From assembly GCA_038845975.1 (NCBI GenBank), contig JAWBQF010000004.1, positions 72,020 through 136,019 on the forward strand: a stretch of DNA of 64,000 nucleotides, read 5' to 3'. The DNA comes from Candidatus Methanomethylicia archaeon (GTDB lineage: Archaea; Thermoproteota; Methanomethylicia; CALHIW01). Made by a program: the position numbers and the translations under genes. The notes beneath the pieces were generated by a model that saw only the letters and a program-made list of their open reading frames with translations, ran no database searches and was not told the DNA's origin. Of this stretch, positions 4,972 to 25,593 are shown piece by piece. The stretch's first letter is position 1; each line of letters starts with the position of its first letter.

Positions 4972-5889
4972 CTATTTAGTAGCACGACCACATCGAGTAC
5001 AGAAAACAGAGCCTTCAGGTATTTCAGCTCCACAATAGCTACATTTTACATATTTTACTGATGGAAGTAATGTAAATCTCCTCTCTCTAATACCTTCATA
5101 TTTCTTAGCTACTAGAACTGCTACTTCAAGCAGTATAATCATAGGTATGAATAGTGCTAAATCAGCTAATGGACCGCCATTAGGTGTTATAATCGCTGTA
5201 AGTATAAACAATACTGCATATATGTATCGTCTTCTTTTAGTTACAATGGTAGTATCTATAAAGCCAAGCTTTACAAGAATAACAAAGATAACTGGTATCG
5301 TAAATGATAGTCCAGTCATTAAAACTGTAAAGAATATTACATTGTAGAAATCAATTACAGAAATGAATGCTTGAGCACCAACTATATAATAGAATGGAAG
5401 CATAGCCCATATTAAGAATGGACATAAAATGAAAAAGCCGAAAAGCCCACCAACAATGAACAGTATTGTGAATGAGGTTATGAATGGATATATCATTTTT
5501 CTTTCATGTGGATATAGAGCAGGATCTATAAACTTGTAAGCCTCATACGCTATAACAGGCATAGATACAATTACACCGAATAATATTGATGTTAAAACAT
5601 AAAGTTCAAGAGGAGCAGTAATCTCTACAGCTATAAGCTCTATTCGAGTTGAGTTTAAGGAATGGAATAGAAATGAGGATTCTAAAATATATGATCTAAT
5701 ATTTCTAAGAATTAAGCCTATTAAAGGCTCATAGAAGCCTAAAGGATCCTTTATAAAGTCGATGTTTGCCGGAAGAACCATCATTGCAATGGATGACATT
5801 AATAAACAGTATACTACGACTTTTAATCTAGCCTTAAGTTCTTCAATATGCTCTGAGAAAGCCATTTCATTAGACAATATAGACCACAT
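4972..5889 (-). CDS. tatC: Twin-arginine translocase TatC with C-terminal zinc-ribbon extension
   Basis: HIEELKARL, YKFIDPALYPHER and AIITP motifs with about 6 TM helices. The tail is CSYCGAEIPEGSVFCTRCG. Confidence 0.92.
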   Translation of the reverse strand: MWSILSNEMAFSEHIEELKARLKVVVYCLLMSSIAMMVLPANIDFIKDPLGFYEPLIGLILRNIRSYILESSFLFHSLNSTRIELIAVEITAPLELYVLTSILFGVIVSMPVIAYEAYKFIDPALYPHERKMIYPFITSFTILFIVGGLFGFFILCPFLIWAMLPFYYIVGAQAFISVIDFYNVIFFTVLMTGLSFTIPVIFVILVKLGFIDTTIVTKRRRYIYAVLFILTAIITPNGGPLADLALFIPMIILLEVAVLVAKKYEGIRERRFTLLPSVKYVKCSYCGAEIPEGSVFCTRCGRATK

Positions 5890-6014
5890 TAAATGCTATC
5901 TACACTAAGGTTTTAAACTTTTAGGCCTAGCTTAAACATGACTTATTTTCAATAATATTAATAAAGCTGTTTAAGCTAAGCTTAAGATTAGTTAAATTGC
6001 GGTAAACTACTAAA

Positions 6015-6299
6015 CTACCTAGCACGTGTCTTCTCAAGTATTTCTTGTACTATTTGTTCACGTGTTTTACCTTCAGTTTTTATACCGAGATTTTTAGCAA
6101 TTTCTATTATTCTTTCATCTGTTGTTGAAGATTTTTTAATTTCATCCTCAATACCTTTAGAAGCCTTTTCAAACTCCTTCTTCGCTAGTCCTATTGATCT
6201 AGCAAGCTCCGGAAGCTTCTGAGGACCCCATAGGAATATAACTACTATTAACACAATCACGATAATCCATTCCCAATTCATTATCGCTAACGGTATCAC
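6015..6299 (-). CDS. tatA: Twin-arginine translocase TatA/TatE
   Basis: Single TM helix followed by WGPQKLPELARSIG.AKKEF; next to tatC. Confidence 0.92.
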   Translation of the reverse strand: MIPLAIMNWEWIIVIVLIVVIFLWGPQKLPELARSIGLAKKEFEKASKGIEDEIKKSSTTDERIIEIAKNLGIKTEGKTREQIVQEILEKTRAR

Positions 6300-7319: not shown

Positions 7320-7772
7320 TTAAATGCTAGAGTGATTAAGCTGCATTAATGTCTCTACTCTACTTACTACTCTATACATATTCCAGTATACAGTTTTAGT
7401 TAGTTTAACAATTGCTGATGCCAATAATTCAGCTGTAGTTCTATCAAGGATTTCACTCACGCTTAAACCATTAATTTTACAGATAGATAGTAATTCCTCA
7501 CATACTCTAAATATTAACCAAGACCTTAATAGTATAACTTTAACATACTTTCCCTCATACTCTTTAAATAACCTAACAGTACTAGCCAGTAATTTTCTAA
7601 AAATTTCTTCATTTATATGATTACCATCTATGTTTAGGAGGTGTTGAAGATGTTGAAAACATAGCTTAATACATTCATTAGAGTTTATAACAGCATCTAC
7701 AAATTGTAGCTTATTTAATTTTCTCTCAGCAATGATTAATACTTCATAAGCTTGGTCAAAAGCAGCAGTCAT
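7320..7772 (-). CDS. Hypothetical protein, possibly HEPN-like fold
   Basis: 150-aa helical ORF whose N-terminus resembles HEPN helices 1-2. No RxxxxH motif. Confidence 0.5.
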   Translation of the reverse strand: MTAAFDQAYEVLIIAERKLNKLQFVDAVINSNECIKLCFQHLQHLLNIDGNHINEEIFRKLLASTVRLFKEYEGKYVKVILLRSWLIFRVCEELLSICKINGLSVSEILDRTTAELLASAIVKLTKTVYWNMYRVVSRVETLMQLNHSSI

Positions 7773-8667: not shown

Positions 8668-9408
8668 TTAGCTTTCACTCATCCTAATTCTTTTTACCTC
8701 GTTTATTATCATTAAAAACGGTGAAGCATATATATGTACTAGTGGGCTAAATGGAACATACATTACTAGAGTCTGTACAAGTATTGAATGAAATAATAGT
8801 AGGTTAATGTCAGGTATATGTTCTAATCTTAATGTGAATCCTGGAGGTATTACAATTACTTTTTCCTCAGTAATAAATGGAGAAAACCTCATCAAATTCC
8901 CAGTTACAATCACTAAAATTAACAAAAGAAGAACAATATAATTACCTAAACTTGAAACTGATCTTAAATAAATTAACCTATACATTACTAGGATTATTAG
9001 TGCTGTCATGACTACAATTCCAAGTATTGTTGGAAGAGTATATTTAAGAAATTCCTTAGGCGCTATCCATGTAAACCATTCTAGGGACCATACTCCAAAA
9101 CCGCGAAGATGCCCAAATATTATGAAAAGCACAGGTATATGAAAAGCTATCCAAGACACTATCCAAAGCTTATATGAGCCTCTTAATAGCTTAAACTGCA
9201 ATACATATCTTGAAATAGTTGATATTAAAGATTGTAAAACAATGGATAATGTTAACTCTTTAAGTGGTAATACATTATCCCTAACAAAAACGCTATATGT
9301 ATGCTTAATCCATGAAGATATTTTAAGAGTTACACCTAAAGTAAAAACTATATAAGTAATTAATGGGAGAATTCTAAACGTAACTATTTCCAGATACTGA
9401 GAAAGCAT
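8668..9408 (-). CDS. NarI/DsrM/HdrE-family membrane cytochrome b
   Basis: About 5 TM helices with four heme-ligand His (AFHI, FGHL, LFHS, LVHI) and a PFSPLVH motif. Confidence 0.85.
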   Translation of the reverse strand: MLSQYLEIVTFRILPLITYIVFTLGVTLKISSWIKHTYSVFVRDNVLPLKELTLSIVLQSLISTISRYVLQFKLLRGSYKLWIVSWIAFHIPVLFIIFGHLRGFGVWSLEWFTWIAPKEFLKYTLPTILGIVVMTALIILVMYRLIYLRSVSSLGNYIVLLLLILVIVTGNLMRFSPFITEEKVIVIPPGFTLRLEHIPDINLLLFHSILVQTLVMYVPFSPLVHIYASPFLMIINEVKRIRMSES

Positions 9409-9521
9409 AACTACACAACTAGAAGTAGCTTATAAAGTTACTTCTTTCACACCTATCTCATTAACTTAAGCTATCAACTACACATATACTATACATGTGA
9501 AACTCAAGAGTCTTCATATTT

Positions 9522-9800
9522 ACCTTATGAACTTTAGCTTTATTTTAGTTTCTCTCTCTTATTTATGGTGTCAGTATGGTTAAAGTTGTTAGGTCTGTTA
9601 GCGAGAACTCCATTTACTATAGCTTTATGATGCTTACATATTTCCATTCATGTTCATCTAGAATGGCTTCGAATATTTTAAACTTCATTACTACAGGAGT
9701 TGTACATCTATATTATGTCTTACTTTAATCTCTCTATTTGAATTTAATAATAATGTTAGGTAATTACAGTTAATGATACAGGTTTAGGGAATAGTAGCTT
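9522..9800 (+). mobile_element. 5' fragment of IS6-family element (same family as 46636..47332)
   Basis: TTATTTATGGTGTCAGTATGGTTAAAGTTGTTAGG...GAGAACTCCATTTACT...CTAGAATGGCTTC aligns by eye to the reverse complement of about 47090-47332. Confidence 0.75.
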
Positions 9801-10092
9801 AATGGAGAGAATAATATATTAGAATTGATAAAAATGTATAAGTAACTATTTGATTTCACAATTCATGTATTCGTCATAAAGAATCCTTCCTTATAATAGT
9901 TTTAGATATTAATAGTTTAGTTTCCATATTCTGAATTCATATCTTCACCTAATAATTTTAAGTATATTAGCACATATCCAGGATGAAGTGGAGAAATCTA
10001 CATAGAAATTATTGACTCATAAATACTTATATTTTAATGATGGATGGAAATGATGATTTTGGATAGTAAAGTTGTGGAGTTAAAAAATTCAG

Positions 10093-11586
10093 TTACTCCT
10101 TAAAAGATAGTACATATGCTAGTGGAATTGATAATAAAGTTATTATTCCTAGAAGCCATGCTGCCGGTGCCCAAGGTACTTCAGGATATGAGTATGGATA
10201 CTTTACATAGGACATTCCCAATACTCCGGATATTAATGTTAAAACACCAATGATTGCTAGAGCTACTAGAGGATTCTTATTAACTTTTAGCTGTAATTCT
10301 GAGTTTTCTAAGGTTTCATGAGACCCTATAATGGCTAGTTCAACTATTGGAAATAGTTTAATAAACACGGTATAAATTAATGCTGCTATAGCATATCCTC
10401 CAATTATAAGTGAGAATTCAACCCATGTTGGTATATATATACCTAGTGGATACGGTAGCTCCGGTCTTAAAAGTACAGGAATAACTATTATAATCCTCTT
10501 AATCCATAATCCAATATTAATTAGAGTAGCAGCTAAAACAATAAGCTTTATACTGAAAAATTTAGGTATAAATGTATAAATTGAAAGCATAATAAATGGA
10601 ATAGCTAATGTTATGATTACTACAAACCAATATAAGGCTGCATAATCTCCGAAAAAGAGAATGTTTGAAACCTCTTTTTCACGTGCTGGACCCAAATATC
10701 TTATTGTAACCTGCTCACATATCATGAAGTATATGTATATTGCTAAAACAACTCTAAGAAAATTGGATAAAATCCTAAATATTTGAGGAGTTATAAGAAA
10801 TTCCCACTGGAAAATTTTTCTGAAAACAGCAGCAACCATTATAATTGTTGCAACACCTGAAGCAATAGCTCCGGTTACGAAATAAGGCCCGAAAAATGGA
10901 TTATACCATCCAGGCCTAACCATTAAGCCGAAAACCCAAGATACAACAGTATGAACACTTACCATTATTGGAAGTATTACTAGAGCAAGCCACCATGCTG
11001 CTTTCTCATGAGCTTTCCTGGATAATACATCATACTTATATCTTAATGAAGCTATTTTATACAACCATGATCTCTTTATAAGATGTTTAGCACATAATGC
11101 TATATCCTCCCTCATCGTTACATAAAGATATATTATTGTTGCTACTAGATATGTTGTTATTGAGGTCATATCCCACACTAGAACTGAAAGCCATCTTCCA
11201 TAAGCAAACATATTAAGAACTCTTTCAGGCCTACCTAAATCAAAAAGTACATTCATAAAAGCTATAATTAGGCTAACAGCTGTTAATAATTCAGCCATTC
11301 TAACAATAGGCTTAAGAACTACAACTCTTAACAGTCTGACACCAGCAGAAATAGCTATACCAGCATGACTAACACCTATTAGAAAAACGAAATTAGCTAT
11401 ATATAATCCATAAATAACATAGTCTCTCATACCTGTAACTCCAAGTCCATAATATAACTGAATATACCAGGCATATAGAAACCACACAATAGTTACCGCT
11501 AATACCGAGATAAATATGTAAAATTTCCTTGATGTATATGTAAGAGGTCTTAATACTTTACTAAGTTCATTTCCACTATAACTCAT
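10093..11586 (-). CDS. NrfD/PsrC/DsrP-family quinol-interacting membrane subunit
   Basis: GLGVTG, YIANFVFLIGVSHAG, DLGRPER, SVHTVVSW and PYFVTGAIASG motifs; about 10-12 TM helices. Confidence 0.92.
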   Translation of the reverse strand: MSYSGNELSKVLRPLTYTSRKFYIFISVLAVTIVWFLYAWYIQLYYGLGVTGMRDYVIYGLYIANFVFLIGVSHAGIAISAGVRLLRVVVLKPIVRMAELLTAVSLIIAFMNVLFDLGRPERVLNMFAYGRWLSVLVWDMTSITTYLVATIIYLYVTMREDIALCAKHLIKRSWLYKIASLRYKYDVLSRKAHEKAAWWLALVILPIMVSVHTVVSWVFGLMVRPGWYNPFFGPYFVTGAIASGVATIIMVAAVFRKIFQWEFLITPQIFRILSNFLRVVLAIYIYFMICEQVTIRYLGPAREKEVSNILFFGDYAALYWFVVIITLAIPFIMLSIYTFIPKFFSIKLIVLAATLINIGLWIKRIIIVIPVLLRPELPYPLGIYIPTWVEFSLIIGGYAIAALIYTVFIKLFPIVELAIIGSHETLENSELQLKVNKNPLVALAIIGVLTLISGVLGMSYVKYPYSYPEVPWAPAAWLLGIITLLSIPLAYVLSFKE

Positions 11587-12362
11587 TTAGATCCCCTATT
11601 AATATAGTAAATACGTGGCTTATATCCAAGATCTTCCCTAAGTCTGAATGATACGTTTTCCCTTATGAGCTTTGATACTTCGCTTTCAGGATCGTTTAAA
11701 TCACCGAAATATCTAGCACCTGTTGGACATTCAACAACACATCTAGGTTTTAACCCACGTGTAACTCGATGAGGACAGAAAATACACTTTTCTACAACTC
11801 CAGCAGGTCTAGGTGGGAGAGCATTAGGATTTAGCTCACCTTCAGGTACTTGAGGCCAAACCCAATTAAAACGTCTAGCATTATATGGGCAGGCAGCCAT
11901 ACATAATCTGCATCCAATACATCTCCTATGATCTATCCAAACAACCCCAGTTTCAAGTTTAAAGGTTGCACCTACAGGACATACTTTAACACATGGTGGG
12001 TCATCGCATTGCATACATTGAACAGGTATATACCATTTACCCTCTTCGGTTTCGCTATAGCATTCATCACCAACATCTATATCAAGTATACCACGAGGTA
12101 AAGCGTAGACCTTAATATAGCTGAATCCAGAATTTCTACCTATATTATTCTCCTTAATACACGCATACATGCATATCCTACATCCAATACATTTAGATAG
12201 ATCTATTACCATAGCGTACTTGGGAAATACGTTATTTTTAGAATCTATACCACTAGCTTCACTGCCAATCTTAATGGATTCTGTAAAAATTTTTGATGTA
12301 AGTAGGAGAATGGGAGCTGTACATAGTATTTTTAGGAAGCCCCTCCTACTTACATTACCCAT
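11583..12362 (-). CDS. NrfC/DsrO-like 4Fe-4S protein with Tat signal peptide
   Basis: SRRGFLK twin-arginine motif. Cys groups CIGCRICMYAC, CMQCDDPPCVKVCP, CIGCRLCMAACP and CIFC...CVVECP. Confidence 0.93.
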   Translation of the reverse strand: MGNVSRRGFLKILCTAPILLLTSKIFTESIKIGSEASGIDSKNNVFPKYAMVIDLSKCIGCRICMYACIKENNIGRNSGFSYIKVYALPRGILDIDVGDECYSETEEGKWYIPVQCMQCDDPPCVKVCPVGATFKLETGVVWIDHRRCIGCRLCMAACPYNARRFNWVWPQVPEGELNPNALPPRPAGVVEKCIFCPHRVTRGLKPRCVVECPTGARYFGDLNDPESEVSKLIRENVSFRLREDLGYKPRIYYINRGSK

Positions 12363-12366
12363 TGCA

Positions 12367-12885
12367 TCACCCTAAGTTAGGTTTAGCTAAAAAAAATATT
12401 AGAATAGCTATTAGTGCTAATAATAGAATGATATATTGGTATTTTGGAGGAATTGGGCTTGGAGTAGTTAATGGTGGCTGGAGAGTAACATCTTCCAGTC
12501 GTGATGGACGTACTATCCATGAGGATTCCCATGTATAATTAATTGTAGTGTGAACAGTTTCACTCCATAGATTAGGCTCTTTAGCATGGCATTGACTACA
12601 CTGTATTGCTTTATCTTTAATTATTGTACCGTTTAGTAGGCATAGTGCTCCATGGTTTGGTTCAATGGGCCAGCTAACAATATGGCAGAGAGAGCATACC
12701 TTCGGTTCATCTCCAAGTTTACTATGATTACCTAAATATATGTATCTATGACATCCATAGCAATAAGGCTCTTGTGGTGAAACATATGGTGGAATGCTTA
12801 ATGCTAGTATTAGTACAATACATAATCCTAGAAGTAGAACTATAATAAGACGTGGGTAATCAGTAAGTACTTTAACAATACTCAT
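12367..12885 (-). CDS. Membrane-anchored triheme cytochrome c
   Basis: Three CxxCH motifs (CYGCH, CSLCH, CSQCH), an N-terminal hydrophobic helix, a Pro-rich linker and a C-terminal TM helix. Confidence 0.88.
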   Translation of the reverse strand: MSIVKVLTDYPRLIIVLLLGLCIVLILALSIPPYVSPQEPYCYGCHRYIYLGNHSKLGDEPKVCSLCHIVSWPIEPNHGALCLLNGTIIKDKAIQCSQCHAKEPNLWSETVHTTINYTWESSWIVRPSRLEDVTLQPPLTTPSPIPPKYQYIILLLALIAILIFFLAKPNLG

Positions 12886-12919
12886 AAAATCACCTCCTAT
12901 AATAGTTTAATAATCATAA

Positions 12920-14899
12920 TTACACCCCATCTAAAGATTTAGAAATAAGCTCAGTTAAATCACATATAGATACTTTCTCATCAATACCCTTAATTCTTGC
13001 AGCATCCTCAAGCATTGCTAGACAAAATGGACACTCGGTAATTACTCCTTCCACATTTAAATCTGTAAGCTCCTCAAGTCTTACAACACTAATTCTCTTC
13101 TCCTCAAGTATTTCATACCAATAATTCGCACCACCACCTCCACAGCAAAATGTTTTCTTTCCTCTATTTCCAGCTTCCTTAACCTTTAATCTTGGAATGT
13201 GTTTTAGAATAGTTCTAGGCTGATTATATATGTTGTTGTATCGTGCCAGATAACATGGATCATGAAGTACTACTACAGTATCTATTGGTTTGCCTATCTT
13301 GATAGCTCCCTTCCTCATAAGGTTTTCAATAAGCTCAGAGTAATGATAAACCTCAATATCTAGTAATCCAAATTTTGGGTATTCGTTTTTAAATGTATTA
13401 TAGCAGTGTGGGCAAAGAGTTAGTATTTTCCTGACGCTATACTTCTTAAATAGTTCAATATTATTTAATGCTATTTCTTGAAATCTACTTTCTTCTCCTA
13501 GTCTCCTTGCAGGATCACCGCAGCATGTTTCCTCAGCTCCAAGTACTGTAAAGCTTATATTAGCAGTTCTAAGAATCTTTATGAGAGATTCTGAAATTTT
13601 AATAGCTCTACTATCATATGAAGCTAAACATCCAATCCAAAGTAAATATTCAACATTAGGATTTTCCTGAATAGTCTTAACGTTTAATTTAGCTGCTAAT
13701 TCCTGTCTATCCCACTGCGACATTCCTAAGCTATTTGAGGAATGAGCTAGATTACTTAGTAGATCGCTTTTCTTCTTATCAAGTCTGGAATTTCCTACAA
13801 GCCATCTTCTAAGGTCAACTATAAAGTCTACATGACTTATCCATGCAGGACATGTGATCATGCATTTTCCACATGTTGTGCAGGACCAGACCTCATCTTC
13901 GGATATTATTGAGCCAGTTAATGTCTCAACATCTCCAGTTATGAGTTGTTTTTTAAGTTTTTGAATTATCATTCTAGGCTTTAAAGCTCTTTTTGAAGCT
14001 ACAGCAGGACAAACTTCGTCACATCTTCCACAATTAGTACAGGAATCAACCATAAACTTTCTAGGCCAATCAAGATCCCAAACATTACCTACACCAAATC
14101 GAATATTCTCCATCGCTTCAGGATTGCTTAATAACTCAGACAGTAGGAATGGAGTTGTTATTGAGCCTAATGGTTTATCAGATTGAATAGCAATATTTCC
14201 TGGTACAGCTAAAATATGCCATAACTTAGAGTATGGAATAGCTGCTATAATAATACATGCTGCAATAACATGTGACCACCAAAACAATATATGAAGAGTT
14301 TCCGCAGTATTAACTGGTATACTAGTTAAAAATAGTGAGATTATAGAGCCTACAGGAGACCATGCAGAGGATAATGAGGAAAATATAAGTTTAAAACTTT
14401 CAGTTAATAATCCTGATAGCCCTAGATATAGTAAAGCTACTAGAGCTAGAAGATCTTCCATTCCAGTTTCAAGCTTCCAAGGTCTAATAACCACTCTTCT
14501 AATTAATGCTAGGCAAACACCTACAATGAATAGAATACCGGAAATATCCATAATTAAGCTTAAATATTGAAAATAGGAGCTGCCGAAAATTAACACTAAT
14601 GGAAGGTTTAAATTAAATAGAAAAGGAAAACCGAGAATAACCTTTCCAAATAGGAGTATTAGGAAGCCGTACATAATTAGAAAATGTGAAATACCAATAT
14701 AGGGATCATTTAATACCCTACCTTGAAGAAGAACATCCCTTAAAAACTTAATATAATTTCTAGAAAAATACTTAAACTGATTAATAAACCCAGTAATACC
14801 ATAAATCTTAACTCTAATGTAGAAACCATAAGTAAACATCACCAACGATCCAATAGCTAAAGCATACATTAACGTTGGTGATGGGGGGGTTAAATTCAT
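12920..14899 (-). CDS. HdrF/FadF/EMO-like fusion: NarI-type cytochrome b + 2x[4Fe-4S] + two CCG domains
   Basis: N-terminal 5-TM domain with His ligands; CTNCGRCDEVCP and CTTCGKCMITCP; CCG.P...CPHC and HDPC...CCGGGG...CPFC. Confidence 0.9.
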   Translation of the reverse strand: MNLTPPSPTLMYALAIGSLVMFTYGFYIRVKIYGITGFINQFKYFSRNYIKFLRDVLLQGRVLNDPYIGISHFLIMYGFLILLFGKVILGFPFLFNLNLPLVLIFGSSYFQYLSLIMDISGILFIVGVCLALIRRVVIRPWKLETGMEDLLALVALLYLGLSGLLTESFKLIFSSLSSAWSPVGSIISLFLTSIPVNTAETLHILFWWSHVIAACIIIAAIPYSKLWHILAVPGNIAIQSDKPLGSITTPFLLSELLSNPEAMENIRFGVGNVWDLDWPRKFMVDSCTNCGRCDEVCPAVASKRALKPRMIIQKLKKQLITGDVETLTGSIISEDEVWSCTTCGKCMITCPAWISHVDFIVDLRRWLVGNSRLDKKKSDLLSNLAHSSNSLGMSQWDRQELAAKLNVKTIQENPNVEYLLWIGCLASYDSRAIKISESLIKILRTANISFTVLGAEETCCGDPARRLGEESRFQEIALNNIELFKKYSVRKILTLCPHCYNTFKNEYPKFGLLDIEVYHYSELIENLMRKGAIKIGKPIDTVVVLHDPCYLARYNNIYNQPRTILKHIPRLKVKEAGNRGKKTFCCGGGGANYWYEILEEKRISVVRLEELTDLNVEGVITECPFCLAMLEDAARIKGIDEKVSICDLTELISKSLDGV

Positions 14900-14920
14900 A
14901 GTGAAGTTAGTTGAATCAAC

Positions 14921-14938
14921 ATTTATATAAATTTTTCC
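14921..14938 (-). promoter_or_regulatory. Putative BRE/TATA promoter of the redox operon
   Basis: Minus-strand GGAAAAATTTATATAAAT about 22-38 bp upstream of the ATG at 14899. Confidence 0.55.
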
Positions 14939-15042: not shown

Positions 15043-15387
15043 ATGGTTGAGCTAGCAACTACCGATTTAGCGCTTAAAATCTTATCTAGATATAAGCTAT
15101 GTAATAAATGTCTTGGTAAACTATACTACGATCCCGGATATGTTAAGGATGAAGAGAGAGGGGAATCGGTAAAGATTGTCTTATATATAGAGGCATTTAA
15201 ATACATTCAAGAAGACAACTACAATCATGGAATAGAAATTCTTAAAACATTAGCTGAAAATGGTGATTTTCACCCAGCATATTTAAGCCTAAAAGAGCTT
15301 AATATAAATATGGAAAGGGGAGAGTTTCAATGCGATTCATGTACTGGAAAAATAGATTTAAACAGTCTTAAAGACAAGAATGAATAG
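15043..15387 (+). CDS. Stand-alone protein resembling the N-terminal Zn-binding domain of archaeal Pus10
   Basis: LCNKCLG...ERGESVK...LKTLAENG...CDSCTG pattern. No pseudouridine synthase catalytic domain follows. Confidence 0.6.
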   Translation: MVELATTDLALKILSRYKLCNKCLGKLYYDPGYVKDEERGESVKIVLYIEAFKYIQEDNYNHGIEILKTLAENGDFHPAYLSLKELNINMERGEFQCDSCTGKIDLNSLKDKNE

Positions 15388-21909: not shown

Positions 21910-24900
21910 ATGAGAGCACTGTTTCTAAATGCTTGTCCAAATTGTGGAGGAGATATACTGGATGAGAGGCTTTCACTGGGAGTACCTTGCGAGAAATGTC
22001 TTCCAATATCAATTAAAGAAATAACCGAGATATCATCAGTAGTAGGTAGTGAGAATTTTAAATTTAAAGTTTATGAACTCCTAAAAAGCCATAATACACT
22101 AAGCGGACTTTCCAGTCTGTTTAGTGTTGATGTTAAGCTTAAGGAGTTAGATGAGTTGTTTCATAAAGCTACGGGAAGTAGGCTTTGGAGTGCTCAAAGA
22201 GCATGGGCTAGAAGGGCGCTAGCTGGTAGAAGTTTCGCTATAATAGCTCCCACCGGTATGGGTAAGACAGTTTTTGGAATTGCATTATCAGTATATAATG
22301 CTTTAAATGAGAAACGTAGCTACATTATTGTTCCAACAGCAATTTTAGCTGAACAGGTTTACAGTAAAATCAATATATTTATTGAAAAGCTTAATCTAAA
22401 CATTAAAGTTTCACGTTACCACTCAGTTTTAGATGGAAACCAAAGAAAAAAGGAGCTTAACAAGATTATTAACGGTGAATTCGATATATTAGTCACTACT
22501 TCAAGCTTCCTCACTAACAATTTTAATATAGTTTCAAAATACTTATTTAACCTAGTTTTTGTAGATGATGTTGATTCTCTATTAAAATCTTCGAAAAATG
22601 TAGATAAAGTACTTATGCTTTTAGGTTTAACTCCTGAAATTATATCTAATGGTTTAAAAATTGTAGATCTGAAAGCTAAACTTTCAAAACTTCAAAAACG
22701 AAAAACAACCTCTAAAGAAGTAGACAGTATAGAATCTGAAATTGAACATACTAAAGAGGCAATTAGCGACTTCATAAATAAGGTAAAGACAGGAATTCTC
22801 ATAGTTTCAGGAGCTTCAACTAAAGCTAGAAGAACCAAGAGAGTTAAGTTATTCAATGAGTTATTGGGATTTGAAATAGGATCAAGAATAGAGTTTATTA
22901 GAAACATAGAGGATATATATGTTCATGATGTACATGTAGTTGAGGATAAGGTTATTGAGCTTATAAGGAAGTTAGGATCTGGAGGCATTGTATTTATTCC
23001 AATGGATAAAGGGGTAGAATATGCTGAAAAGCTTTACGGAAAGCTTATAGAGAGCGGTATTAATGCTGGTATCTACACTAAATCTAAAAGGAAGCTTATA
23101 GAGGATTTCACTAATGGTAAATATGATGTCCTAATTGGTATGGCTTCCTATAGAAGCCCATTAACTAGAGGTATTGATATTCCACATAGAATTAGGTATG
23201 CTATATTTGCTGGAGTTCCAAAGTTTAGAATTAGCCTTGATATTGAAGAGGAGTTTAAACCTTCACGTGCATTAATATTACTTGCAAATTTAAGAGATTT
23301 ATTGGAGCAGAAGGAGCAGGATTTAGTGGACAAGTATATAATGGATCTTAGAAACTTAATAGCAATTATTGGAAGAGATGACATGAAGAAAATAGTTGAT
23401 GCTGTGAAACAGAATGTTAAGCTTACAGGCTTCCTTGAAAGAGTTAGAAGGAAGTTTATTGAAATAATTTCGTTTTTAACAAATCTAATAGGAAGAGAAG
23501 ATATTAAGGAGAAAATTAAGCTAGCACCTCACCTGTCAATAAGCTCCGAGTTAGGTAAGCCGTATCTCGTAGTTCCAGACGCTGTCGCATATATTCAAGC
23601 ATCAGGTAGAACTTCAAGATTGTATCTTGGAGGAGTATCAAAGGGTATTTCCATAGTTATTATTGATGATGATAAAGCATTTAATGGATTAGTAAAGGAT
23701 GTTAAATGGTATGTTGAAGAAATAAATTGGAAAGATATCAAGGATGTTAATATTACTAAGTTATTGGAAGCTGTAGATAGCGATAGAGCTACAATAAGAA
23801 AGCTAATGGATGGAGTGATAAGTCCAGAATTTCAGGATATAGTTAAAACAGCACTTCTAGTTGTCGAGTCGCCTACTAAGGCAAGAACTATAGCGAAATT
23901 CTTCGGTAAACCTAGTAAAAGAACTATTCATGAACTAACTATTTACGAAGTAAGTACTGGGGACTTAGTTCTTAACATAGCTGCTAGTGGAGGACATGTC
24001 TTCGATATCCCAACCTATGATTTAGGAGGTAATAGTTTATATGGTGTATTAAGTATTGATGGAAGATTTATACCGGCATACATCACTATTAAGAGATGTT
24101 TAAAATGTAGGAAAACATTCACGGAGCCAATAGGAAAGTGTCCATCCTGTCAATCTCCTCTAGAAGATAAAATGTGGATTATAGAAGCATTAAGAGATGC
24201 TGCTTGGGAGGCAGATATGGTTTTAATAGGAACTGATGCTGATGCTGAAGGGGAAAAAATAGGATGGGATATTGCACAAATGCTGATGCCGTATACTTCA
24301 ATGATTAAAAGAATTGAATTTCATGAAGTAACAAAAAGAGCATTAATAAATGCATTAAAAAATATGCGTGATATTAACCATAAACTTGTAGAAGCCCAAA
24401 TAGTACGGAGAATTGAGGATAGATGGATTGGATTTGAGCTCAGTAAGAAGCTATGGTCTAAATTTAATAATTACAGGTTATCAGCTGGAAGAGTACAAAC
24501 TCCTGTTTTAGGCTGGGTTGTTGAAAGAACAAGTGAAACTAGAAGAAATATTCAGGATTTCTTCGAGCTTACATTAGAGAATGGAATTAAAATAGTTTTA
24601 AAAAAGCCATTAATGAAACATGAGGAAGTTAAAAGAGAAATAGATAAACTTAAAAATTTAACATGCATAGTTAAATGGGTTTTAAAGGAAGAGGAGGAAG
24701 TTAATCCGTCACCACCATTCTCAACAGACTCACTACTTAACGAGGCAGCATCAACACTAAAGTTTAATGTTAGTAAAACTATGGCTTTAGCTCAGGACCT
24801 ATTTGAAGTAGGCTTAATAACATATCACAGAACTGATAGTATAAGAGTTTCTTCAATTGGGCAGAATATAGCATTAGAATACATTAGGGATAAATTTGGT

Positions 24901-25593
24901 GAAGAATTCTTTAAGCCACGTGAATGGTCGAGAGAGGGGGCACATGAATGTATAAGACCGACAAGACCTATAGATACAGCGAGACTTAGACAACTACTAG
25001 CATTAGGTGTTATAAGACTTGCTAAGAGATTAACAGATGATCATCTAGCATTATATGATATTATATTTAAAAAATTTATTGCAAGCCAAATGACACCTAC
25101 AAAAGTAGTTAAGCAGAAATGTGAAATAGCTATTGAAGACTACATTGAAAAAATTGAAGGTTACATACACATAGTTAAACCTGGCTTTAGCCTTATAAAA
25201 CCTCTCCACTTAATACCGGAGGTCAAGGAAGGCGCAATAAAGATATTAAATGTACAGAACTGGAAAGCTCCAACAGTTAATTTACTAACACAGGGAGATA
25301 TAATAGGACTAATGAAAATTAGAGGAATAGGAAGACCATCAACATACGCTAAAATTATGGAAACACTATTTCAGAGAGGATATATAAAGGAAAGCCCTAA
25401 AAGAAACATAATTTCAACAAAGAAGGGGTACATGGTTTACATTTATCTTTCCAACGAGTTTAATGAATTTGTATCTGAAGAAACAACAAGAAAACTTGAG
25501 GAAATAATGGATTTAATAGAAAAAGGAAGTATTGATTATCAAGATGTTCTACATAAACTATACAGTGAAATAGTAAGTATAAGAATAAGGTAA
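21910..25593 (+). CDS. rgy: Reverse gyrase
   Basis: N-terminal Zn finger (CPNC...CEKC), SF2 helicase-like APTGMGKT/DDVD/QASGRTSR, TOPRIM VESPTKA, a second Zn finger and catalytic ITYHRTDS. Confidence 0.98.
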   Translation: MRALFLNACPNCGGDILDERLSLGVPCEKCLPISIKEITEISSVVGSENFKFKVYELLKSHNTLSGLSSLFSVDVKLKELDELFHKATGSRLWSAQRAWARRALAGRSFAIIAPTGMGKTVFGIALSVYNALNEKRSYIIVPTAILAEQVYSKINIFIEKLNLNIKVSRYHSVLDGNQRKKELNKIINGEFDILVTTSSFLTNNFNIVSKYLFNLVFVDDVDSLLKSSKNVDKVLMLLGLTPEIISNGLKIVDLKAKLSKLQKRKTTSKEVDSIESEIEHTKEAISDFINKVKTGILIVSGASTKARRTKRVKLFNELLGFEIGSRIEFIRNIEDIYVHDVHVVEDKVIELIRKLGSGGIVFIPMDKGVEYAEKLYGKLIESGINAGIYTKSKRKLIEDFTNGKYDVLIGMASYRSPLTRGIDIPHRIRYAIFAGVPKFRISLDIEEEFKPSRALILLANLRDLLEQKEQDLVDKYIMDLRNLIAIIGRDDMKKIVDAVKQNVKLTGFLERVRRKFIEIISFLTNLIGREDIKEKIKLAPHLSISSELGKPYLVVPDAVAYIQASGRTSRLYLGGVSKGISIVIIDDDKAFNGLVKDVKWYVEEINWKDIKDVNITKLLEAVDSDRATIRKLMDGVISPEFQDIVKTALLVVESPTKARTIAKFFGKPSKRTIHELTIYEVSTGDLVLNIAASGGHVFDIPTYDLGGNSLYGVLSIDGRFIPAYITIKRCLKCRKTFTEPIGKCPSCQSPLEDKMWIIEALRDAAWEADMVLIGTDADAEGEKIGWDIAQMLMPYTSMIKRIEFHEVTKRALINALKNMRDINHKLVEAQIVRRIEDRWIGFELSKKLWSKFNNYRLSAGRVQTPVLGWVVERTSETRRNIQDFFELTLENGIKIVLKKPLMKHEEVKREIDKLKNLTCIVKWVLKEEEEVNPSPPFSTDSLLNEAASTLKFNVSKTMALAQDLFEVGLITYHRTDSIRVSSIGQNIALEYIRDKFGEEFFKPREWSREGAHECIRPTRPIDTARLRQLLALGVIRLAKRLTDDHLALYDIIFKKFIASQMTPTKVVKQKCEIAIEDYIEKIEGYIHIVKPGFSLIKPLHLIPEVKEGAIKILNVQNWKAPTVNLLTQGDIIGLMKIRGIGRPSTYAKIMETLFQRGYIKESPKRNIISTKKGYMVYIYLSNEFNEFVSEETTRKLEEIMDLIEKGSIDYQDVLHKLYSEIVSIRIR

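Follow-up and report, generated by a model that had tools for sequence, protein, structure and literature searches.

A central problem in syntrophy is how high-potential acyl-CoA electrons can be removed when oxygen is absent. The solution worked out so far combines EMO, an oxidoreductase between electron-transfer flavoprotein (ETF) and (methyl)menaquinone, with formate dehydrogenase or hydrogenase. The Syntrophus EMO preprint names three heme His residues and a further His capping the proximal non-cubane cluster (10.64898/2026.08.18.745454). The EtfD study likewise names the heme His residues and the cluster-capping His, located where Hdr binds coenzyme M (CoM) (PMC13083937). Both solved EMOs lack one Cys at the distal non-cubane cluster. 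In the case of DsrMKJOP, DsrK has one CCG motif and an ECGH motif, the three hemes of DsrJ are ligated by His/His, by His/Met and by His/Cys, and the role of DsrJOP is described as unresolved (PMC10861901). Geobacter Cbc4 (CbcSTU; 10.1101/2025.04.14.648717) and the group 4 and 5 menaquinone:cytochrome c oxidoreductases of Methanoperedenaceae (PMC7327174) combine an anchored multiheme cytochrome c, a four-cluster iron-sulfur (FeS) protein and an NrfD-like subunit, with no molybdoenzyme. For ActC of the NrfD family, the proton-pathway and quinone-site residues have been tabulated, and Asp replaces ActC His139 in QrcD and DsrP (PMC8076601). Here we analyse a stretch of 64,000 nt from a hot-spring Candidatus Methanomethylicia archaeon (the window), in which a gene for an EMO-type fusion precedes a cytochrome-FeS-NrfD trio. 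Both halves are known separately, and their union is a new combination. No description of an EMO-cytochrome-NrfCD operon was found in the main texts of the literature searched, nor in the available part of PMC3903129. We give roughly an even chance to the reading that the four genes form the two ends of a quinone-linked outlet for acyl-CoA oxidation, from ETF via quinone to an outer triheme cytochrome. The host genome (2.77 Mb, 76 contigs) is 93% complete, and the genome-wide negatives below refer to this assembly. We assign the host to the class Methanomethylicia, since another genome of its class encodes a protein that matches one named Ca. Nezhaarchaeales at 674 of 676 positions.

Five minus-strand open reading frames (ORFs) with the expected domains are present at 8668..14899 of the window, according to ORF and profile reads. 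The first gene, emo (12920..14899, minus strand), encodes an EMO/EtfD/FadF-type fusion of 659 aa with a Nitrate_red_gam domain, a Fer4 dicluster domain and two CCG domains. On the same strand follow the genes of a triheme cytochrome c of 172 aa (12367..12885), a four-[4Fe-4S] protein of the NrfC/DsrO/QrcC type of 259 aa with a twin-arginine translocation (Tat) motif (11583..12362), and an ActC-like NrfD-family membrane subunit of 497 aa (10093..11586). The intergenic gaps are 34, 4 and -4 bp in gene order, and then 684 bp upstream of a narI-type gene. The original prediction, made from the letters of the window, had described four tightly spaced genes behind a single promoter and no catalytic molybdoenzyme. 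The ORFs, domains and gaps bear out this layout, no molybdoenzyme gene lies within the locus, and one conserved TATA-like box, which is a sequence pattern, was read ahead of the four genes.

This putative promoter, GGAAAAA-TTTATATA (14924..14938, minus strand), was read directly against the archaeal consensus of B recognition element and TATA box, and is located about 25-32 nt ahead of the first ATG. A similar TATA-like box is found at the equivalent spot before the emo gene in four related lineages. Directly 3' of the TATA box lies the palindrome GTTGA-N-TCAAC (14910..14920), a candidate repressor site, which is exact in the related genome G001 and near-conserved in three metagenome lineages. 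Two perfect copies are present genome-wide, and only the window copy sits after a TATA box before a gene; a regulon search with the palindrome over the genome found no second TATA-linked site. The cytochrome gene has the Shine-Dalgarno sequence AGGAGGTGA (12890..12898, minus strand), typical for an internal gene of a polycistron, and its GGAGGTG ribosome site is retained in all five lineages. We infer that the emo, cytochrome, FeS and NrfD genes form one transcription unit, a candidate operon with a single conserved TATA box. A scan for sigma-70 promoters and terminators gave fewer sites than shuffled sequences and was set aside as not applicable to archaea.

The order of emo, trio and narI is conserved in G001 and the three metagenome lineages with protein identities of 76-92%, and also in two further near-identical contigs. 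In 5/5 lineages the spacing inside the unit is constant (33-34, 1-4 and -4 bp), whereas the distances to the flanking genes differ between them (119-1066 and 396-810 bp). For every gene of the locus, the nonsynonymous distance (dN) is far below the synonymous distance (dS), and dS among the lineages is 0.3-0.8. The constant spacing is stronger evidence than the gene order for a four-gene unit.

The 659-aa protein combines in one chain a five-helix NarI-type cytochrome b with two cubane motifs and a pair of CCG domains. Its closest match in the PDB is mycobacterial EtfD (9OJN), with an E value of 2e-77 for the sequence and TMq of 0.82 for the fold, and the predicted structure has a pLDDT of 92. 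The heme ligand positions correspond to His72, His210 and His228, and the cluster-capping His (H534 of the Syntrophus EMO, H583 of EtfD) corresponds to His498 in a CPHC motif. Each of the four is invariant in 77/77 aligned homologues. The CCG Cys residues vary among these homologues, with Cys at 460 in 29/77 and at 499 in 62/77. To judge from this variation, loss of the distal-cluster Cys is not a family-wide trait of EMO. In trees of the soluble part, the protein falls inside an archaeal EMO-type clade (support 100/98), three members of which are etfAB-adjacent. An approximately unbiased test rejects a clade of the protein with DsrK-like proteins (p-AU 3.9e-10), and the tree also separates it from HdrD-like rows. 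These trees were calculated with LG+G4 and no mixture model, and they comprise no characterised bacterial EMO, FadF or methanogen HdrD sequences. The DsrK model gives 39 bits against a cut-off of 400, and the protein has two CCG motifs and no ECGH motif. By its sequence, the fusion is EMO/FadF/EtfD-like and not DsrK. The family had been proposed for it beforehand, with a phylogeny as the check, and this phylogeny excludes DsrK ancestry. Similar NarI-FeS-CCG fusions occur in 101/401 genomes of the phylum. The loci of 39 of the 99 EMO-positive genomes outside the genus were fetched, and etfAB lies within about 6 kb at 19 of these 39. The host itself carries a second EMO on contig C11 (L025:6446-12081), in an operon of a gcvH-like gene, a CoA-disulfide-reductase-like flavoprotein gene, this EMO, etfB and etfA, and the order is the same in G001. 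A lipoate-type carrier gene (gcvH-like) thus adjoins EMO/ETF genes there.

The cytochrome has CxxCH motifs at 42, 64 and 96 and is predicted to be anchored at both ends by hydrophobic helices (13-31 and 149-167). Candidate distal heme ligands are His54, His78 and His112. Since three spare His residues are available and no internal Met is present, the sequence suggests bis-His hemes for electron transfer rather than DsrJ-type catalysis. Cys82 is not conserved. The DsrJ NCBIfam model gives no match for the cytochrome, and a control DsrJ reaches 156 against a cut-off of 100. Four close relatives show 79-88% identity, and dN of the gene is 0.06-0.11 against dS of 0.29-0.76. A profile search retrieved doubly anchored tetraheme proteins, two of them named as Chloroflexota or Dehalococcoidia. 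The window cytochrome belongs to this family of 4 to 11 hemes and has lost the last (fourth) CxxCH. For the NapC/NirT type, to which CbcS belongs, the Cytochrom_NNT model gives sub-cut-off or marginal matches in distant relatives and none for the window protein. In the ESM Atlas, the first match (0.90) carries Paired_CXXCH and is a lead only; the predicted fold (pLDDT 53) was left out of use.

The 259-aa protein has an N-terminal SRRGFLK and 16 cluster Cys residues. It reaches 211 bits with the DsrO model (cut-off 200), a score that is not diagnostic, as a Bathyarchaeia trio subunit reaches 213. The NrfD subunit is recognised by the NrfD profile and has a two-helix C-terminal extension. The DsrP model gives it 117 bits against a cut-off of 350, and a genuine DsrP gene, taken from a dsrMKJOP locus, reaches only 123. 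A canonical DsrMKJOP/Hme complex, serving to reduce sulfite or to oxidise sulfur, would account for the DsrO score, the triheme cytochrome and the NarI gene. It is at odds with the DsrK score and motifs of the fusion and with the missing DsrJ match; moreover, dsrAB and dsrC, which had been reported absent from the window, were not found in the genome either. We consider this explanation scarcely credible.

The best match of the NrfD subunit is ActC. According to an alignment read by eye, the ActC-equivalent residues His74, Arg96, Glu99, Thr102, Ser134, Asp139, Tyr146, Asp161, His212, Tyr235, Glu291 and Arg364 are present. ActC His139 is replaced by Asp (Asp116) and ActC Asp253 by Val. The putative quinone site comprises Asp116, Ser134 and Asp139 together with Arg364. 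The tree places the subunit in a clade of 20 (support 99), 16 of whose other members also belong to trios. The cytochrome family is found in 20/301 Bathyarchaeia genomes and 2/301 Dehalococcoidia genomes, and the cytochrome-FeS-NrfD order recurs at 18 of their 25 places. At the remaining seven, the cytochrome and FeS genes end a contig (one), the run is cut off (one), the cytochrome stands alone (two), or it follows DsrK-like genes (three, of which two show the complete DsrE-M-K series). One distant trio is located downstream of an HdrD-like gene. Because of the recurring order and the shared NrfD clade, the trio is, on this sequence evidence, an older mobile unit.

In a minority of Bathyarchaeia genomes, multiheme islands (L287-L309) contain 11-heme cytochrome-FeS-NrfD trios next to ccm genes and to cytochromes of 8 to 12 hemes. 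In three of the islands, a small family member of 3 or 4 hemes comes after DsrE/DsrM/DsrK-like genes. A second clade of FeS and NrfD modules without a molybdenum subunit (support 97, 16 rows) spans archaea and bacteria (L048, L062, L063, L076, L095, L122, L214-L218, L084, L106), and several of its modules precede DOMON, EB_dh, Ig-like or monoheme proteins.

The host genome supplies several parts that an outlet for acyl-CoA electrons needs. The genes ccmA, B, C, E and F on contig C12 make up the full set for cytochrome c maturation. Five etfAB pairs and 11 acyl-CoA dehydrogenases are encoded, none adjoining the emo gene of the window. The genome also holds an 11-subunit complex I-like operon, HdrABC-like, ComB-like, Mtr and Sdh/Tfr-like genes, and two DsrMK/HdrDE-like pairs. 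Neither mcrA nor hydrogenases of the NiFeSe_Hases family were found. Of the quinone genes that were also sought, a MenA-like prenyltransferase gene is present below the cut-off, but no menaquinone ring pathway was found. A MqnC-like match of the futalosine pathway was rejected, as it is CofH. Genes of C1 metabolism are located on contig C2:64000-80000 (L037) and genome-wide: mtrA, C, D and E, H4MPT C1 enzymes, F420 synthesis and HdrABC-like genes.

The outlet reading rests on the gene content, cofactor motifs, family placement, spacing and maturation genes described above. It further presumes co-transcription of the four genes, ETF as the donor, a quinone as the carrier, an outward direction and an outer acceptor. 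The acyl-CoA dehydrogenases would reduce the ETFs encoded elsewhere in the genome, and ETF would bind the 659-aa protein at its CCG domains, on the cytoplasmic side. The electrons would reach heme b by way of two non-cubane clusters and two cubane ones, and would reduce membrane quinone. Then the ActC-like NrfD subunit would re-oxidise the quinol at a site on the outer face. From there the electrons would move via the Tat-exported four-cluster protein to the triheme cytochrome, which is predicted to be anchored twice and probably has bis-His hemes, and on to an acceptor close to the outer face of the membrane. This acceptor would more likely be a diffusible shuttle, or an outer enzyme that has escaped recognition, than a mineral or a partner cell in direct contact. 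If quinone were reduced near the proximal heme, a proton-motive loop would result. If it were reduced at the distal heme, as in Syntrophus EMO, proton-motive force would be spent to drive the electrons uphill.

A number of findings weigh against this outlet. The fusion retains all ten CCG Cys residues, as heterodisulfide reductases do, and the His at the position of His498 is also present in a host SdhB/TfrB-like protein and is therefore not exclusive to EMO. No etf gene adjoins the emo gene on either side, and the second EMO, which directly precedes etfBA on contig C11, could alone serve beta-oxidation. MqnA and MqnD were not found in the genome, and the MenD matches are below the cut-off. 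In the single heme-copper oxidase, Ser takes the place of both Cys that would ligate CuA in subunit II. The cytochrome is the only ORF in the host genome with at least two CxxCH motifs. One of five listed public RNA runs covered part of the region (share 0.12) with short contig pieces within emo; these are scattered and none spans a gene junction, and three raw-read runs gave 0-2 reads. Unrelated neighbours in the genus are equally syntenic, so that gene order alone proves little. An EMO fusion is found at none of the best 80 of 599 confirmed NrfD relatives, EMO or ETF at 0/23 screened loci of distant members of the cytochrome family, and an NrfD or multiheme gene at 0/39 EMO loci outside the genus. 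Adjacency of EMO and trio is thus seen in this genus and not at the other loci compared (39 of EMO, the best 80 of 599 of NrfD).

The retained cysteines also bear on another explanation, that the fusion is an HdrDE-like thiol/disulfide oxidoreductase acting on CoM and coenzyme B or a sulfur carrier, within a DsrMKJOP-like unit without DsrAB. The gene order resembles dsr(MK)JOP, and the Mtr, HdrABC-like, ComB-like and Tfr/Sdh-like genes of the host are in line with it. The three Bathyarchaeia places after DsrK-like genes and the trio below an HdrD-like gene show that thiol-type inner modules do pair with the cytochrome family. However, His498 stands where the CoM site is blocked in EMO, and the HdrB-like and DsrK/HdrD-like proteins of the host have no equivalent of it. 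The separation from DsrK-like and HdrD-like rows, in a tree without a characterised methanogen HdrD, and the missing mcrA also argue against it. We judge this explanation quite unlikely.

For the acceptor side, the original prediction had envisaged a complete trans-membrane wire for syntrophy or extracellular electron transfer. The proposed wire ends at a doubly anchored three-heme cytochrome with no further multiheme protein. Because this cytochrome is membrane-tethered and the only multi-CxxCH ORF, the conduits usual for passing electrons directly to minerals or partner cells are missing; since no menaquinone ring pathway was found either, the step to syntrophy or extracellular transfer is weak. 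Foreign multiheme, DOMON, EB_dh and cupredoxin queries gave no matches in the host genome and no downstream partner. A DUF362 protein with a Tat motif on contig C5 is a possible outer redox partner; its gene is adjacent to that of a putative cyclase, which also has a Tat motif (L310:3898-6265).

The heme-copper oxidase pair (L243:9108-11182, contig C3, about 22.1-24.2 kb) has a gNOR-like look, and a hemerythrin gene follows. The pair is unusual for the class, and a search of the sister genome (62% complete) did not find it. Subunit I apparently has Asp where the helix-VI active-site His is expected, which we take to be a gNOR feature. gNOR has been described as quinol-fed (10.1101/2021.10.15.464467). 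Since the CuA-less subunit II looks quinol-fed, the oxidase is unlikely to draw on the cytochrome. A reading as alternative complex III (ACIII) delivering electrons to the oxidase was rejected, as subunit II has no CuA ligands.

The flow could also be inward, as in Qrc or Hmc. An outside donor would reduce the cytochrome, NrfD would reduce quinone with cytoplasmic protons, and EMO, working backwards, would deliver the electrons to ETF, for biosynthetic reductions or for respiration with enoyl-CoA. EMO can operate in both directions and in Syntrophus sustains enoyl-CoA respiration (PMC8805022), and Qrc moves electrons from a periplasmic cytochrome to quinone via an NrfD-type subunit (PMC8076601). 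Among the best 80 of 599 NrfD loci, 45 have a molybdopterin-family subunit, many in Qrc-like order, and Asp116 is the residue type of QrcD and DsrP, whereas ActC has His. On the other hand, no outer donor enzyme feeding cytochrome c was found in the genome. The Tat formate dehydrogenase comes with FeS and NrfD-type anchor genes of its own and could do without the trio, and comparable trios of Methanoperedenaceae and Geobacter have been proposed as outlets (PMC7327174; 10.1101/2025.04.14.648717). Inward flow therefore seems rather unlikely to us. The formate dehydrogenase, of the FdnG type, is encoded with its FeS and NrfD-type anchor genes in a respiratory island on contig C7:1-20000 (L045, L031). 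The island also holds a Tat HybA/HmcB and HybB/HmcC-like pair without a catalytic subunit, and an HdrDE-like pair.

The narrow distribution suggests a further explanation, a loose association. In this case an imported cassette would stand behind the EMO promoter, both halves would act on a common quinone pool, and the trio would be a general redox valve without a particular link to beta-oxidation. The link between EMO and trio is limited to one genus, each half occurs without the other at all other loci examined, and of 60 relatives in the class, the remaining 59 were not found to have the trio NrfD. Against this, the near-invariant spacing of 33-34 bp, the ribosome site and the palindrome have been conserved over dS of 0.3-0.8. 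A loose association is unlikely in our view. The conservation expected of the gene order thus holds within the genus, but adjacency of EMO and trio was not seen outside it. The module probably arose in this lineage, when an archaeal EMO was placed before a cytochrome-FeS-NrfD cassette of the Bathyarchaeia/Dehalococcoidia type.

A bolder form of the outlet reading is that all four proteins assemble into a single supercomplex of DsrMKJOP shape, with EMO in the place of DsrMK, as a hard-wired conduit from beta-oxidation to the surface. We regard this as improbable. If it were true, a hyperthermophile that is related to the Methanomethylicia methanogens but apparently lacks Mcr could oxidise fatty acids by direct electron export. 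This route would be an alternative to the EMO-formate dehydrogenase loop, which is apparently also encoded.

The narI-type gene downstream (8668..9408, minus strand) encodes a stand-alone NarI/DsrM-type diheme cytochrome b of 246 aa with four His residues (His90, His100, His207 and His225). It gives no match to the DsrM model, and the ESM Atlas matches (0.92) to NarI clusters are a lead only. A TATA-like box precedes the gene (9429..9436, minus strand), and a similar box is found at the same place in 5/5 lineages. Because of this box, narI is probably transcribed separately, outside the four-gene transcript. The gene had been placed beyond an insertion sequence relic. It is indeed there, but the 'relic' is a non-coding, high-copy dispersed repeat (about 9530..9779) in the 684-bp gap that resembles a miniature inverted-repeat transposable element. 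The repeat has 109 matches in the genome at E<1e-10, 69 of them at least 200 bp long, and the region aligns poorly with G001.

The tatA and tatC genes (4972..6299, minus strand), identified by profile matches, begin with tatA 2.37 kb beyond narI, close to the 2.4 kb given earlier. Six Tat-motif proteins are encoded in the host genome, and the TatAC proteins would export the FeS subunit and also serve other substrates. TatC (4972-5889) bears a C-terminal zinc-ribbon extension. Genes of enoyl-CoA hydratase, 3-hydroxyacyl-CoA dehydrogenase and thiolase are located at 30.4-34.0 kb of the window. The nearby beta-oxidation genes are thus present as predicted, but the cluster contains no acyl-CoA dehydrogenase or ETF, both of which are encoded elsewhere in the genome. 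A 150-aa ORF at 7320-7772 has no family match and was not seen in the four related lineages. At 15043-15387, divergent from the operon, a 114-aa stand-alone Pus10 N-terminal domain is encoded, which is under purifying selection in 5/5 lineages; a second copy of this domain is located on contig C21. Reverse gyrase is encoded at 21910-25593, with a score above the cut-off. The main text of the Culexarchaeia paper contains neither 'cytochrome' nor 'quinone' (PMC9723716), and a cultured Methanonezhaarchaeia strain is described as free of cytochromes (PMC12700198). A c-type respiratory module thus appears unusual for the class.

The candidate operon is a compact candidate for a third exit of acyl-CoA electrons, from EMO to cytochrome c, in an archaeon. 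It rebuilds the DsrMKJOP plan from independent halves and bears on the role of the DsrJOP module. The cytochrome-FeS-NrfD cassette in 20/301 Bathyarchaeia genomes is of interest by itself. The narrow distribution and the lack of an acceptor found limit the value of the operon.

Compared with EMO of Syntrophus aciditrophicus, EtfD of Mycobacterium smegmatis (9OJN) and FadF, the fusion has the same one-chain architecture and the same heme and capping His residues. It differs from the solved EMO and EtfD in keeping ten CCG Cys residues and in having no adjacent etfAB. It also precedes a cytochrome outlet, whereas EMO, EtfD and FadF depend on a terminal oxidase or formate dehydrogenase whose genes lie elsewhere. 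Compared with DsrMKJOP/HmeABCDE, the fold inventory and gene order are similar and the DsrO model is passed. However, the inner module is a two-CCG EMO fusion instead of DsrM and a single-CCG DsrK, and the cytochrome is unrelated to DsrJ, with no Met or conserved Cys ligand. The NrfD subunit resembles those of ACIII (ActABCDEF) and QrcABCD and keeps most proton-pathway residues of ActC, except for Asp in place of His139 and the loss of Asp253. Unlike ACIII and Qrc, the locus has no ActB/QrcB molybdopterin-like domain, ActF, pentaheme ActA or QrcA. The trio, likened beforehand to Cbc4, does match the plan of Cbc4 and of the Methanoperedenaceae oxidoreductases. Its cytochrome has three hemes and two anchors, whereas that of Cbc4 is a singly anchored tetraheme protein; the host genome was found to hold no periplasmic or surface cytochrome pool downstream, and the trio is co-located with EMO. 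The Bathyarchaeia/Dehalococcoidia cassette shares with the window trio the homologous cytochrome, the gene order at 18/25 places and the NrfD clade. The cytochrome of that cassette has 4 to 11 CxxCH motifs and often lies beside further multiheme and ccm genes; in the flanks fetched it never adjoins EMO, unlike the trio of the window.

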